Below are positions 1-33,853 of a stretch of DNA of 64,000 bases, in pieces. Source of the DNA: Candidatus Thorarchaeota archaeon (GTDB lineage Archaea; Asgardarchaeota; Thorarchaeia; Thorarchaeales; Thorarchaeaceae). The position numbers and the translations under genes are program-made. Location: positions 1-64,000 of the forward strand of contig JAWOEX010000045.1 of the NCBI GenBank assembly GCA_046482545.1. The letters run 5' to 3'. A model generated the notes under the pieces. It was not told the origin of the DNA and made no database searches. It saw only the letters and a program-made list of their open reading frames with translations. How positions within the stretch are numbered: position 1 is the stretch's first letter; each line of letters starts with the position of its first letter.

Positions 1-450
<450 letters not shown>

Positions 451-798
451 TGAGCTTAAAGCGTCCGTAGCCTGTTCAGTAGGTCCCTGCTAAAATCCGG
501 CCGCCCAACGGTCGGAAAGGTAGGGATACCGCTGTACTTGGGGGCGGGAGACGACAACGGTATTTCGCAGGTAAGGGTGAAATCTTATGATCTGCGAAGG
601 ACCACCAGTGGCGAAGGCGGTTGTCGAGAACGCGCCCGACGGTGAGGGACGAAACCCAGGGGAGCGAATCGGATTAGATACCCGAGTAGTCCTGGGCGTA
701 AACCATGCCCGTTAAGTGTTGCTACGGCCACGAGCCGTGGCGGTGCTGCAGCAAAAGCGTTAAACGGGCCGCTTGGGAAGTACGGTCGCAAGACTGAA

Positions 799-828
799 AA
801 CACAGGTCAGTACGACCTGCGTCAGTTC
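799..828 (+). other. 30-nt 16S rRNA intron with canonical bulge-helix-bulge ends (after E. coli-equivalent A908)
   Basis: Exon stem AAG/CTT, bulge AAA (797-799), 4-bp helix ACTG/CAGT (793-796/823-826), bulge TCA (827-829), inner hairpin CAGGTC-agtac-GACCTG. Cutting after bulge nt 2 restores GACTGAAACTTAAAGG. Confidence 0.92.
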
Positions 829-867
<39 letters not shown>

Positions 868-1416
868 GCTTGCGGTTTAATTGGACTCAACGCCGGAAAA
901 CTTACCCGCCCAGACAGCCGAATGAGAGCCAGACTGATGATCTTGCTCGACGAGCTGAGAGCTGGTGCATGGCCATCGTAAATTCGTGCCGTGAGGTATC
1001 AGCTTAAGTGCTGCAACGAATGAGACCCTTGCCACCTAATTGCCAGCCGGGGGCTTCGGCCCTGACGGGGCACATTAGGGGGACTGCTAGCGAAAAGCTG
1101 GAGGAAGGTGAGGGCCACGGTAGGTCCGTATGCCGCGATATGGGCGGGGCCACACGCGTGCTACAATGGCGAGGACAATGCGTTACAACACCGAAAGGTG
1201 AAGTCAATCGCGAAACCTCGTCGTAGTCGGAATCGCGGATTGCAATTCATCCGCGTGAACCTGGAATCCCTAGTATCCGCGTGTCACTAACGCGCGGAGA
1301 ATACGTCCCTGCTTCTTGCACACACCGCCCGTCGCTCCATGCGAGCGGTTCTGGGGTGAGGCGCTGTCTGAAAAGGCGGTAACGAATCTTGGGATCGCAA
1401 GTAGGGAGAAGTCGTA

Positions 1417-1446
1417 AGCGGGTCACACTTCGTGACATGCCGATTA
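1417..1446 (+). other. 30-nt 16S rRNA intron with relaxed BHB/BHL ends (after E. coli-equivalent A1499)
   Basis: Helix GTCG/CGAT (1411-1414/1441-1444), two TAA bulges, inner hairpin GTCAC-acttc-GTGAC. Excision restores AAGTCGTAACAAGG. Confidence 0.88.
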
Positions 1447-1487
1447 ACAAGGTATCCGTAGCGGAAGCTGCGGATGGATCACCTCCT

Positions 1488-1627: not shown

Positions 1628-2725
1628 CTACTGACTATCTTCGATTTGCCTCAGCAACTCTTTTGCTGCTTCGAGTTCTGCACGAATACTATCACTGTCC
1701 CATTTCTCTAGGTATCCTTTGTAGATACCGATTGCTTCTTTCACGCGCTTCTTCGCTGGAGAGGATTTGCCGTTTTTGCATAATGCATCAGCGTATTCCA
1801 CCAGTGTTTCGGCTAGGTTTCTTGCTTCGACAGGATCTGACGCCGCCCGTTTTCGATGATACTCCACTTTGCGCTTCAACAGGTCAGCTCCACCTTCCTC
1901 CCCCAGTTCTTTGAAGATGATTTTTGGAATCAGTTCCTCGATTTTTCTCATCACATAGTCGTGGTTGACAAGCTTCTTTTTCCACTCGTCCTCGTCACAG
2001 TTGAAATAGGACTTGACGGGTTTCTTCACCCTTTCTTTTGCCACCTCAACTGAAGAATCGACATCTTCTGGTCCAATCATCTCTGTGAAAGTGAAGAGTA
2101 TAATCCTGTTTTCCCAATCTCCTGTAATGCTTGACTCAAAAGAGATTTCCAGCGCACCTTCCGACCGATGGAGTTCCCCGTGCAATGTTTCGCTATCTAA
2201 TTGCCAGAACGATCCCACCGGAACCCGTGCCAGTCCAAGAAGATTCGCCATCCTCCAGTCCTCCCTGAAAACGAACCCTTCTCGTGTGCTCGGGTCTGGC
2301 TTGAAACTAAGCTCGATGTTGTACAACTGTTGCTCAGAAATCAACCTTTTCGACTCAAGCATACTCAGGATATCCCCCGTATCTACAGGTTCACTGAACA
2401 TGACGCGCAATCGCTCATCTATGCAGGAATCAGGAACATTCACCTTCCAGCACATTCCGTGTTGATTAATTTCTCCAAGAACTGGACAGTATTCTTCCGC
2501 GTGGGTTACGGTCAATTTCACGGGCTGTTCGTTGGCCTTGATCAGTTCCGCACAGGTGAGAGGGAGCGGCGCATCTATTTCGATGTACGGTTCTTTGCGG
2601 AAAACATACGGCTTGAGAAGCGGCAGCTGTTCGAATTCTATGTCTTGGTAAGGGTCCCAAGTCATGTACTGGTTCGGATTGACCGAGCTCTGCAGAGGAA
2701 CCCCATCCACCACTGGCCGACGCAA
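1628..2725 (-). CDS. Hypothetical protein (365 aa) with a helical, TPR-like C-terminus; its 3' tail recurs across the array
   Basis: Long ORF convergent on the 16S; C-terminus ARNLAETLVEYADAL...AKKRVKEAIGIY is TPR-like; no recognisable catalytic motif. Confidence 0.8.
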   Translation of the reverse strand: MRRPVVDGVPLQSSVNPNQYMTWDPYQDIEFEQLPLLKPYVFRKEPYIEIDAPLPLTCAELIKANEQPVKLTVTHAEEYCPVLGEINQHGMCWKVNVPDSCIDERLRVMFSEPVDTGDILSMLESKRLISEQQLYNIELSFKPDPSTREGFVFREDWRMANLLGLARVPVGSFWQLDSETLHGELHRSEGALEISFESSITGDWENRIILFTFTEMIGPEDVDSSVEVAKERVKKPVKSYFNCDEDEWKKKLVNHDYVMRKIEELIPKIIFKELGEEGGADLLKRKVEYHRKRAASDPVEARNLAETLVEYADALCKNGKSSPAKKRVKEAIGIYKGYLEKWDSDSIRAELEAAKELLRQIEDSQ

Positions 2726-2758
2726 AAGTGATAGGACTTCCGAGGTGCGGTGAAGGTG

Positions 2759-3511
2759 TCATGTATCAACTGTTTCGCCCTCGTGTTCGAACTCAACGAG
2801 ATAATCCATATTATCTATGGAAAGGGTACATTGTACTGGGATGACCTCTTCAAGGTTTTCTGCAATCTCTTCTAGACTGCCCTTAACCCGTGCTTTCAAT
2901 CCTGGCGGTATGGCCGCTCCTCTTGGCTGCTTGATGCCGGACTTCTTCGTGTAGTCGATTCTCATCCCCCGTATCTCTGAGATGGCATCTCGCTTTCTTG
3001 GAATGATGCTCACTTCGCCTGATAGCTCCCATCCGCTATCCATCAACACCCACAGATACTCCACTCCACTAAGAGTCGCGACCATGATATTGTATACAGA
3101 ATCGGTGCTCATCGCTTTCTGAAGACTGGTGGCCATCACATCGTGTGCATTCGTGGCCCAGCTGAATGCTCCTCTGACATCCACCGGGATCTTGTTTTCC
3201 CAATAGCCATTCACAAGCTTGGTCTTATCATACTGGTCCTGTAGAAACACCCAGCACCCCTGTTCATCACAGTCCAGTAGGAGACCGTGTCGAACTTGGA
3301 TCTGTACAGGTACAGGACTCACGACAAGCTCCTTTGCCCGCTTGTTCAGGTTAGACCAGACACTTCTCATACCGAACTTGGGAATCAGTCGTTCGCGCGT
3401 TTCCTTGTCCCTGAGCTCGAATCCAAGATGGTGTAATTGCCAAGGGCGGAGAACATCCCAGAGGGTCTCTATATCAGCATCATCTAATTCCGGGTGAACA
3501 ATCTGACGCAT
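2759..3511 (-). CDS. Hypothetical protein (250 aa), probably co-transcribed with the 365-aa gene
   Basis: 250-aa ORF, same strand, 33 bp upstream of the 365-aa ORF. Confidence 0.75.
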   Translation of the reverse strand: MRQIVHPELDDADIETLWDVLRPWQLHHLGFELRDKETRERLIPKFGMRSVWSNLNKRAKELVVSPVPVQIQVRHGLLLDCDEQGCWVFLQDQYDKTKLVNGYWENKIPVDVRGAFSWATNAHDVMATSLQKAMSTDSVYNIMVATLSGVEYLWVLMDSGWELSGEVSIIPRKRDAISEIRGMRIDYTKKSGIKQPRGAAIPPGLKARVKGSLEEIAENLEEVIPVQCTLSIDNMDYLVEFEHEGETVDT

Positions 3512-3544: not shown

Positions 3545-4269
3545 ATTTCGCTTGCGGAGAGTATCTGGAAATCAGATATACTAGGACACGAGAGAATTAC
3601 ATTCCTGCTCCTTGATAATTCTATAGAGTTTATGTCAAAATGCTATCTCAAAGTAATTCGTAATCTAGTTGGAACTAAAAAAGGCACAAAATAACTTCGA
3701 ATGACTGGGAAGATATCTCTAGGTATTTCGGGTATTTGATGGACATAATGAAGAAGCACTCTCCAATACCCCCAAAGACGATTGAATCCATTAAAGCCTA
3801 CCATCAGGTCAGGAATGATTTGTATCATACCTCAATTCCCATGGCTGTCACGAAATCACAATTCCGGGATGAACTCAAAAATGCAATCGAGGTCTTTGAA
3901 ATCTTATTCAATGCAAAATGCGAATCAAGTATCATTGATGTGCCCGCAGTTCTACATAAGAGACCATCACTACAAGATGCTATTTCTGTGGTAACAGGAG
4001 ATCAATATGTGCGAGTCGATATTCCCGATAATTGGTCACTTAGCCAATGCATTAGAGTAATTATCTATGGATACACGTCATCACTTGGTTTGCTTCCGAC
4101 ATATCAGCAGATTGAACAAGCACTCGCAATTTCAAATAGGCCTACCCCAAAGGACAAAATCCGCCAAGGGAATCATAATCTGAAATATCGTGGACATATC
4201 AAGGAGCCAACTGAAGGCAAGTACTCACTCACATCAGAAGGAAAATCTGCTGCCGAAGAACGTAGATAA
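3545..4269 (+). pseudogene. HEPN-like (RxxxxH) plus C-terminal winged-helix protein; frameshifted and lacking a start
   Basis: An upstream frame reads ERITFLLLDNSIEFMSKCYLK and shifts near 3680-3695 into the 177-aa ORF containing RNDLYH; the C-terminus KYRGHIKEPTEGKYSLTSEG is wHTH-like. Confidence 0.6.
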
Positions 4270-4294
4270 TGATTGAGAGGATAGAGAATTAGAC

Positions 4295-4771
4295 TCAGTC
4301 TTCCCCTTCAATAGTATCTTCTTCTCGCTCATCTGTCAGAAGAATATTCTGGAGGCGCTCCAATCCTGGTCCAGCTAACCGATGCCTAGATTTCTCAATT
4401 TCTTCAAACAAATCCCTATAATTTTCGTTTCCATAGTGAGCCGTAATGGTACTCACCGTTACCCCTAGAAGCTCGGCAATTTCCTGATTTCTTATACCCT
4501 TTCTTCCAGCTAGATGCATAGCTATGATAATTTGGTCAAGACGACTCTCGATTTCTGGACTGAATCTCGCGGAGCCATTGGGCAATATAGATACAAGATG
4601 ATCCAGGTTCTTACTAATCGGCTGATGCCATACGCTACTTGATTTTTTCAATACTTGTTCAATCGCTTCAAGTCTCTCATCGATTAGATTCTCTACATTT
4701 GATATTTCTTCATCTGAGAGCTCTATCGTGGCATCATAATGAACTCGATTTATGTGTATTTCAATATTCAT
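4295..4771 (-). CDS. Hypothetical protein with C-terminal winged helix-turn-helix
   Basis: GIRNQEIAELLGVTVSTIT HTH plus wing HRLAGPGLERL; likely start MNIEIH at 4771 within the 204-aa ORF. Confidence 0.65.
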   Translation of the reverse strand: MNIEIHINRVHYDATIELSDEEISNVENLIDERLEAIEQVLKKSSSVWHQPISKNLDHLVSILPNGSARFSPEIESRLDQIIIAMHLAGRKGIRNQEIAELLGVTVSTITAHYGNENYRDLFEEIEKSRHRLAGPGLERLQNILLTDEREEDTIEGED

Positions 4772-13665: not shown

Positions 13666-13840
13666 CGCTTTCAGAGCGAGGCACCTTGTACAGACGAGCG
13701 GGGTTAGAGAACAGGGAGTTTGCCCTCCTGACACTGTTGAGCACCTTCTATATTTTGCATATGTTTTACAAAACTGAGTTGAGAGACCGTCTTTCTACTG
13801 ACTATTTTCGATTTGTTTCAGCAGTTTGTTTGCTGTTTCA
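13666..13840 (+). repeat. Repeat R2: near-identical copy of the 16S trailer plus the last ~14 codons of the 365-aa gene
   Basis: CGCTTTCAGAGCG...GTACAGACGAGCGGGGTTAGAGAACAGGGAGTTTGCC...CTACTGACTA; the minus-strand tail reads ETANKLLKQIENSQ*. Confidence 0.95.
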
Positions 13841-15332: not shown

Positions 15333-15558
15333 TCAATCTCACCTATTATTCTAAGCGAGCCCTCATATGCTCTCCTTTTCATAGTGTTCCAATACCACCC
15401 TTACTTATGGACTCGAAAATGAAGAGAGACTTTGGCTTTCTATCAGACACATCATATGCTTTCCGCCTTACAGACAAAAAAGCGAGAGATATAGAACCAT
15501 GCTGGGTTAGTAGTGCAATTTAGGTTACTCAAGAAACTGAATCTCCCTTTCATGTGCG

Positions 15559-15650
15559 CTGTTGAGCACCCTCTATATTTTGCATATGTTTTACAAAACT
15601 GAGCTTAGATGCCGTTTCACTACTCGGCGTCTTTGATTTGCTTCAGCAGC
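15559..15650 (+). repeat. Repeat R3: 5'-truncated trailer copy plus gene tail
   Basis: CTGTTGAGCACCCTCTATATTTTGCATATGTTTTACAAAACTGAG...; the minus-strand tail reads LLKQIKDAE*. Confidence 0.9.
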
Positions 15651-21412: not shown

Positions 21413-21535
21413 ACTTGAGGTACAGACGAGCGGGGTTAGAGGAACAGGGGTTTACCCAACTGACACTGTTGAGCACCCTCTATGTTTTGCACAAGATTAC
21501 AACGCCGAGTTGAAAGATCGTTTGACTACTGACTA
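21413..21535 (+). repeat. Repeat R5: diverged full trailer copy ending at the gene-tail stop codon
   Basis: ACTTGAGGTACAGACGAGCGGGGTTAGAGGAACAGGGG...CTGACACTGTTGAGCACCCTC...TTTTGCACAAGATTACAACG...CTACTGACTA. Confidence 0.93.
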
Positions 21536-21556
21536 CTGTCAATATTCATGAGAAAT

Positions 21557-32596: not shown

Positions 32597-32722
32597 TTAT
32601 ATGAATGATAAAATGTATGCAGCAATCATATTTCAGAGGCCTAATCATACTTGAAGAATTCATTCGAAAAGAAATGCAGCAAAGGCCCATAGCTGAGAAG
32701 GCATGGAATAAGTCAATCAGAA

Positions 32723-32927
32723 GTACAGACGAGCGGGGTTAGAGAACAGGGAGTTTACCCCTCCTGACACTGTTGAGCACCCTCTACATTTTGCACAAGA
32801 TTACAACGTTAAGTCGACAGGCCGTCCGGCTACAGACTATCTTCGATTTTTTTAACAATCCGTTTGCTATTTCCAATTCTATTCGCAAGTCCTCAGTATC
32901 CCATTTCTCCAGTTGTTTCTCATAGAC
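32723..32927 (+). repeat. Repeat R6: diverged full trailer copy plus a 32-codon gene tail
   Basis: GTACAGACGAGCGGGGTTAGAGAACAGGGAGTTTACCCCTCCTGACACTGTTGAGCACC...; the minus-strand tail reads VYEKQLEKWDTEDLRIELEIANGLLKKIEDSL*. Confidence 0.94.
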
Positions 32928-33049
32928 GCGGTAATTCTCCTTTGATACTGATTTATACTGAAGAGCAAAACTGGATTATTTTCATGAAAGATACAATGTT
33001 TTCGTCTATCAATATACAGAGGCGGAGAGTGTTATTGGATCTGTGATAT

Positions 33050-33139
33050 TCATCCCTTTCTCTTTGCTCGTTTCTTGATTATCTTGGCCATTTCTTTCTC
33101 GATATCTTCATCGAGAGGTTCAACTTGGTGCACCTCCAG
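33050..33139 (-). pseudogene. C-terminal remnant of a second MttB-like methyltransferase
   Basis: LEVHQVEPLDEDIEKEMAKIIKKRAKRKG* versus the intact LETHEVEPLDKDIEKEMRKIIKKH*. Confidence 0.8.
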
Positions 33140-33416
33140 ATAACCTGTTCCTTACAGTTGCGTAGACTGCATGAAACTTCTGTGTTCCACCCTTCCCCTG
33201 CCAGCGTCACCGCCCCCAAGGCTACCCGAAGGCCCGTGAGTCAGCAGGGGCTTTGTCCGCGTTCATTGGAACAGGGTTCCTCCCGCGGTCCTGGCTTCCG
33301 TCTCCTGTCGTTGCTCCGGGTCACACTCCCGGCGACAGCGAGGTCTTCCACAGTTCTTACCACGGCGTGGTCATGATCACCCATCTCAGCCTTGTCACCG
33401 TAGCCGAGAAGGTCCA

Positions 33417-33707
33417 TTACAGAACGGTGAACAGCCGCGGACTCTCCAGATAGACCTCTTTTTGGCTAGCCTCGATTTTCAGTTCTTCCGTTGCCTTGGC
33501 TGATAAGATAAGTCGACTGAATTCTCTAAGATGAATTGCGTTTCGGTTGACCTGATCTGAGAGATTATTTAGAACTTCCACTACATTCTTCTCACCTGAT
33601 TCTATTATAAGATTCAACGTAGCGATTCTTTCAGAATTGATGTAGAGTTGTTGTATTTCATCCTCCCTCATGCAATAATCTGCGAAAACATTACAGTGTT
33701 CAATCAA
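33417..33707 (-). CDS. Hypothetical protein (96 aa), possibly a fragment
   Basis: ORF only. Confidence 0.35.
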   Translation of the reverse strand: MIEHCNVFADYCMREDEIQQLYINSERIATLNLIIESGEKNVVEVLNNLSDQVNRNAIHLREFSRLILSAKATEELKIEASQKEVYLESPRLFTVL

Positions 33708-33853
33708 GCTGATGAAATTACAGAACGTAGTATTATGTATGAACGATCAATCGATAATGTGAGATGGTGAATCATTTGAATGGAGATTCATCTAGGCTAA
33801 CAGAATTTCGCTGAAGTGTAGCTCTTTTATCCCACACGAGACAATATTTCACC

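Follow-up and report, generated by a model that had tools for sequence, protein, structure and literature searches.

A mobile 30-nt mini-intron of apparent BHB class in the 16S decoding region of Thorarchaeota, with a plausible RNA-guided vehicle

How does a 16S rRNA gene work when its decoding region is interrupted, and how does an insert with no room for an enzyme gene come to spread there? Both questions are raised by a 64,000-nt stretch of DNA from a Candidatus Thorarchaeota archaeon (GenBank assembly GCA_046482545.1, contig JAWOEX010000045.1, positions 1 to 64,000), which we call the window. It holds the 3' two-thirds of an archaeal 16S rRNA gene (405-1487, plus strand) with an intact anti-Shine-Dalgarno sequence, and a 30-nt insert at 1417-1446 on the same strand splits the universal 1492-1505 motif of this gene into two halves. 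The nucleotides on either side of the insert, A1499 and A1500, belong to the decoding-site helix and are close neighbours of m3U1498. The best overall explanation, which we hold with good confidence, is that the insert is a protein-spliced BHB mini-intron and a near-neutral mobile passenger, with homing in trans by a TnpB-like nuclease as a plausible vehicle. Such an intron would make protein-catalysed splicing obligatory for the decoding centre of the ribosome in an Asgard archaeon.

The insert is real. Independent assemblies from two DNA runs rule out an assembly artefact: a 347-nt contig from run X1 spans 1128-1474 with zero differences (289 nt on the 5' side of the insert and 28 nt on the 3' side), and in run X10, produced by a separate study, the exons are the same over 840-1478 and a 30-nt intron of different sequence occupies the same place. 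A first-pass annotation, made from the sequence letters, would have been refuted by DNA reads that fail to support the insert, and run X1 supports it. The idea that the insert is an artefact or belongs to a dead 16S copy draws on the chimeric start of the contig, where 1-404 is unrelated sequence, and on a second partial 16S gene on contig C33. However, another 18 genomes and 17 metagenome contigs have an insert at this site, the exons agree fully with RNA contigs, and C33 is itself chimeric, with a 5' part that matches the congeners. Against the support from X1 and X10, this idea is exceedingly improbable.

The chimeric parts can be described individually. Window positions 1-404 are GC-rich and hold a fragment of a gene for a monomeric isocitrate dehydrogenase; they join the 16S gene at the 515F site, in what is a misjoined contig start. 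The partial 16S on C33 (G000, about 32730-33800) has a 3' part that, together with its 908 intron, matches another genus, and C33 is probably a misjoin carrying this genome's true 16S 5' end. We considered two 16S paralogues and rejected them on the same chimera, whose 5' part is 2.2-2.5% from the congeners and whose 3' part is closest to the other genus.

What kind of insert is it? A sequence check showed that the universal motif is regained if 30 nt are removed after any of 1414-1417. The BHB rule, under which each 3-nt bulge is cut behind its second base, singles out 1417-1446, and excision by this rule exactly regains the uninterrupted gene. Folding of the junction gives a central 4-bp helix between GTCG at 1411-1414 (the exon strand, G1494-G1497) and CGAT at 1441-1444 (the intron strand). 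This helix is flanked by TAA bulges at 1415-1417 and 1445-1447, with cuts predicted by the established BHB rule at 1416/1417 and 1446/1447. The intron stem-loop (1418-1440) pairs 1418-1426 with 1432-1440 in 9 bp that include one G.A and closes with a pyrimidine-rich 5-nt loop; the fold z is -2.3 for this one sequence. No local exon-exon pairing was found on folding, and the 1499 intron without an exon-side outer helix is not a strict, canonical BHB. The first-pass annotation had described a 30-nt intron after A1499, the GTCG/CGAT helix with its two TAA bulges, restoration of the universal sequence by the splicing-endonuclease rule, and a relaxed substrate whose exon-side stem does not pair locally. 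Folding and E. coli numbering, with A1499 counted from the 3' end of the E. coli 16S gene, bear this description out.

Other classes of insert do not fit. The insert has no Rfam group I match and is 30 nt long, against 200 nt or more for a group I catalytic core; on the group I criteria of a U before the intron and a G at its end, it is unlike the introns of loci L009 and L103. At 30 nt it encodes no ORF and is not a homing intron with its own endonuclease, and the only LAGLIDADG of the genome is in a 1221-aa frame elsewhere. Boxes C/D with antisense to helix 44 are likewise absent from the 30-nt 1499 form; such guide-bearing 1499 introns, a DPANN type, were seen only at about 100 nt. By every sequence-level test, the insert would be classed as an archaeal BHB-class mini-intron in relaxed form.

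Comparison of variants supports the same structure. The 25 distinct 30-mers have a mean identity of 63%, and 96% of cells are paired. Compensatory changes occur in eight of the nine stem pairs, a figure equalled by 0 of 500 shuffles in a control that ignores kinship, and slid controls drop to 25-57%. The first two bases of the intron strand of the central helix, the helix-forming CG, are identical in 25/25 variants. The intron-side helix is conserved by covariation.

The genome appears to encode an EndA able to cut relaxed motifs, plus RtcB. The catalytic EndA subunit is most similar to the alpha chain of Aeropyrum pernix, keeps Y125, H133 and K164, and has the loop lysine K42, equivalent to K44. 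A second subunit without the catalytic histidine is non-catalytic, which points to an (alpha-beta)2 enzyme. The genes for the two subunits lie at L002:1219-1782 and L003:1450-2049. The loop lysine is needed for relaxed substrates of (alpha-beta)2 EndA (Hirata et al. 2011, PMC3241643), so this enzyme fits a substrate that is missing one outer helix. The relaxed (BHL-type) tRNA introns of that study share the missing outer helix and the loop lysine of the host EndA with our case, but here the substrate is an rRNA and its cleavage is predicted from sequence. The EndA dependence proposed in the first-pass annotation agrees with the conserved cut geometry and with the loop lysine of the host enzyme.

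We propose that, in pre-16S rRNA, exon nucleotides 1494-1497 would pair with the 3' end of the intron and be closed by the 9-bp hairpin, that the (alpha-beta)2 splicing endonuclease would cut both 3-nt bulges, and that RtcB would join A1499 to A1500 to give a normal decoding centre. In the RNA data, the metatranscriptome contigs X3 and X5 agree with the exons in deep coverage between 443 and about 1330, but give hardly any coverage across 1369-1470, and no joint was listed. We infer with high confidence that the intron is cleaved out and its flanks ligated. It could instead be excised with the ends left unjoined, giving a fragmented 16S rRNA, or be retained in mature rRNA as an expansion. Such outcomes would be in keeping with the missing exon-side helix, and the spliced junction, spliced reads and circular intron are all unobserved among RNA contigs that barely reach this region. 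However, they sit poorly with an established position inside the decoding-site helix beside m3U1498, with the half of relatives that have the same exons and no insert, with conservation of precisely the EndA cut geometry, and with an encoded RtcB, and we consider them very unlikely.

The intron also bears on amplification surveys. The first-pass annotation had it destroy the 1492R primer site. The site is indeed interrupted but it is not erased: on the genomic copy 14 of 19 primer bases match, including all nine 3'-terminal bases, with five mismatches, compared to one mismatch on the spliced form. Priming is likely lost on the intron-bearing copy, and the site is interrupted in about 45% of Thorarchaeota genomes. 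Thorarchaeota are reported to be virtually absent from SILVA (0 of 4499; PMC13617573). Because half of the genomes are without the intron, it is at most a contributing cause of this absence.

How widespread is the intron? An insert of 29-30 nt at 1499 is present in 19 of the 41 Thorarchaeota family genomes with a readable site and absent from the other 22, and 17 metagenome contigs add further 1499 loci. The first-pass annotation had suggested a survey of Asgard 16S genes for inserts at 1499; BHB introns occupy the site in about 45% of Thorarchaeota and in many Heimdallarchaeota, and in many DPANN as well. The same mini-intron design recurs at about nine 16S sites (908, 1340, 1347, 1364, 1376, 1388, 1499, 1517 and 1531, some of them +/-1), and ACTTC or ATTTC loops are common among the family's mini-introns. 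Outside the family, where all counts are lower bounds, we found at least 38 archaeal BHB-type introns at 1499, of 29-840 nt and some with LAGLIDADG ORFs; their hosts among the matches listed are Thorarchaeota, Aenigmarchaeota, Micrarchaeota, Woesearchaeota, Hadarchaeota and Heimdallarchaeota. Group I-type introns at 1498 number at least about 70 in bacteria and archaea.

Several loci in this survey have features of their own. The group I-type introns at 1498 occur in many Actinomycetota, Patescibacteria, Dormibacteraeota and Thermoplasmata-type genomes (L007, L020, L027, L035, L065, L009, L103 and others), and all would interrupt 1492R. Introns of about 100 nt at 1499 in Aenigmarchaeota and other archaea (L004, L016, L038, L043, L091, L105, L110, L116 and others) carry box C/D-like motifs antisense to helix 44 that point at C1402 and A1408; the first guide varies with host base 1400, with one exception, L110. 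Position 1408 itself (window 1326-1340) is G, the eukaryote-like base, in the window as in the Thorarchaeota loci read. A BHB intron of 30-33 nt lies after A1531, directly 5' of the anti-Shine-Dalgarno sequence, in nine loci (L128, L133, L135-L138, L140, L162, L163). We rejected the notion that relatives have 16S copies without an anti-Shine-Dalgarno sequence, as another intron sits after 1531. Genome G002 has three tandem 30-nt hairpins in the helix 45 loop at 1517 (L165, about 1240-1330, minus strand), with cores that resemble 1499 variants. In G024 an assembly gap falls exactly at the 1499 site (L170, about 1055-1155), possibly from a mix of intron-plus and intron-minus alleles, and the foreign, non-Thorarchaeota 16S 3' end in the bin of G011 (L214) is likely contamination.

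Short hairpin BHB introns in 16S rRNA genes are known. Jay and Inskeep (2015, PMC4496867) described such introns of less than 50 nt at 13 loci in Thermoproteales, Desulfurococcales and Aigarchaeota, and the 1499 intron resembles them in its ORF-less hairpin, BHB geometry, conserved rRNA site and interference with primers. The window also has a second 30-nt BHB intron at their published locus 908 (799-828, plus strand), which is canonical, with an exon-side helix, and is missing from both congeners. Unlike their introns, however, the 1499 intron has an Asgard host, no exon-side helix, and a fixed 30-nt design shared by nine or more sites, and 1499 is outside their 13 loci, in agreement with the first-pass annotation, in which it is not known as a common crenarchaeal site. 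In Nanohaloarchaeota and Micrarchaeota, Nawrocki et al. (2018, PMC6125680) found a group I intron in the same motif, one base away at SSU/1498, and we found this intron again in archaea and bacteria. It is a ribozyme of 230-830 nt, whereas the window insert has 30 nt and no catalytic core. The literature searched, most of it non-subscription, contained no description of a 1499 BHB intron, of Thorarchaeota rRNA introns, or of TnpB guides against rRNA. This is a known kind of intron at a widespread, apparently unpublished site in a new lineage, and it adds an rRNA intron locus that we did not find in that literature. As a place where introns of the BHB and group I types sit at adjacent positions, the site lends itself to testing the proposed group I origin of BHB introns.

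The intron moves: lineages gain it, lose it and exchange it with one another, because neither its presence nor its sequence follows the 16S tree. On a tree built from exons only, intron presence needs eight changes, at least five of them forced by well-supported branches, and it is unclustered (78 of 500 shuffles were as low). G085 has the intron and G081 does not, and their exons are identical. Over 16 loci, intron distance is unrelated to exon distance (Mantel rho 0.0). The congener G078 differs from the window genome by 0.5% in the exons but by 40% in the intron, for which the nearest match is in another genus.

What could carry an intron this short between alleles? We searched the 86 family genomes for the intron-less junction sequence outside the 16S gene. 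Guides for 1499 are present in 9 of the 86 genomes, compared to the intron in 19. The junction matches lie just behind a TnpB-like gene (PF07282) in eight genomes (G015, G020, G031, G060, G071, G074, G077, G081), and G078 has the same array and flanks as these TnpB-linked arrays, which places both congeners (G077 and G078) among the carriers. A further match in G004 was rejected as a chance match within a coding gene. In five of the eight genomes the cassette lies downstream of the 16S gene at a distance of 6-13 kb; in G077 the TnpB-like gene and its downstream RNA span L157:6418-8300. In each mini-array, 12-24 nt of 16S sequence come after a short GGTCGG repeat, and six 16S target classes recur, each across a known intron site. 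Both orientations are targeted, so the targets would be DNA. In the 16S gene, four of the six targets come after GRAT, a motif chosen after the data were seen, which is where a target-adjacent motif would be expected. The 1499 intron enters the guide match at 7-9 nt and breaks it. Guides that fit the uninterrupted site and lose their match once the intron is present occur in relatives, including both congeners.

Most intact guides correspond to positions at which the genome carrying them also has an intron. All three in G060 do so, and G077 and G078 have one guide and one intron each. G081 has an intact guide for 1388, where it carries an intron, and a guide mismatched at its first base for 1499, where it has none. 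The exceptions, with a guide and no matching intron in the assembled 16S gene, are G015 (1499) and G020 (1517 and 1340/1347). This agreement is weaker than it looks, because all guide targets are confined to the last 210 nt of the 16S gene, where about half of 16-mers span an intron site, and the genomes compared are kin and not independent. Most intron-bearing genomes show no guide. The TnpB-like proteins keep both RuvC aspartates, with G332 in RuvC-II and E386 downstream. A glycine with a downstream glutamate is the arrangement of active rearranged TnpBs (PMC10530073), and the RuvC domain looks like this rearranged active type.

We propose RNA-guided homing as the means by which the 30-nt rRNA mini-introns of Thorarchaeota, the window intron included, are spread. 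A TnpB-like nuclease encoded beside the 16S gene with its multi-guide mini-array would cut intron-less 16S alleles in trans, repair from an intron-bearing allele would copy the intron, and each intron would shield its own site from cutting. The window genome would represent a late stage, with the intron retained and the driver gone. Its 45-contig assembly has no 1499 guide above chance, and the TnpB-like gene and guides are missing from it. The window does hold, at 1628-3511 on the minus strand, a broken remnant of the large gene that heads the G077 cassette of TnpB and 16S-matching array, with an in-frame stop near 2759 and the first approximately 346 codons missing; synteny with G077 holds to 3506. 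The evidence for lateral movement of the intron is good, and an RNA-guided vehicle is plausible but unproven; we put the chances of the full proposal, shielding and driver loss included, at about even.

The spliced BHB intron could also have decayed from a LAGLIDADG homing intron and have been moved by co-conversion or through the action in trans of protein homing enzymes, with TnpB guides that serve the element's own targeting and coincide with intron sites. BHB introns of 575-840 nt with LAGLIDADG ORFs at 1499 in Micrarchaeota and Aenigmarchaeota are a possible source, Thorarchaeota have 740- and 849-nt introns at 908, relatives have duplicated 16S 3' ends downstream, and co-conversion of a hairpin intron has been published for locus 1205 (PMC4496867). 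On the other hand, we looked for a long, endonuclease-bearing 1499 intron in Thorarchaeota and found none in 41 genomes and 17 metagenome loci, random decay would not give nine sites one uniform design of 29-33 nt and a common loop, and most intact guides match a site that carries an intron in the same host. We regard this origin as possible but somewhat doubtful.

Spread at the RNA level was reportedly proposed by Fujishima in 2010 for Thermoproteales tRNA introns. Here, excised circular mini-introns would re-insert into rRNA or tRNA and then be reverse-transcribed or recombined. The same hairpin cores do occur at different sites, as in the 1347 and 1499 introns of G010, which share a core, and in the tandem 1517 hairpins of G002 with their likeness to 1499 variants. 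But no second copy of the window core was found in its own genome, and the process accounts for new sites better than for allele replacement at one site. This route seems unlikely to us.

RNA-guided homing, our proposal, has parts with precedent. Collaborative homing (reviewed in PMC13565253) and TnpB-driven homing (IStrons, bioRxiv 10.1101/2023.11.20.567912) are known separately, and as in those systems the empty allele would be cut by a nuclease not encoded within the intron, or by an RNA-guided TnpB, and repair would copy the element. The proposal differs from them in that an array of several guides is directed against junctions in the host's rRNA and that the intron carried along, 30 nt long and protein-spliced, is a separate element; we found no published combination of such homing with BHB mini-introns in the literature searched. 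It makes the spread of introns too short to encode an enzyme testable, with the TnpB guides as a concrete, assayable answer.

The rRNA loci also show duplications and spacing of their own. Degenerate copies of the 16S 3' end, starting near 1498-1507 and spaced at kilobase intervals downstream, resemble attachment sites in six loci (L154, L155, L156, L157, L159, L161). In the window, a segment of 100-200 nt is repeated downstream of the 16S gene at 1534-1647, 13688-13839, 15556-15648, 21413-21552 and 32720-32926, and it is repeated in G077 too. At locus L001, the 16S and 23S genes are 79 kb apart on one contig, and the 23S peptidyl-transferase region (about 4077-4305) has some 218 nt extra relative to four relatives.
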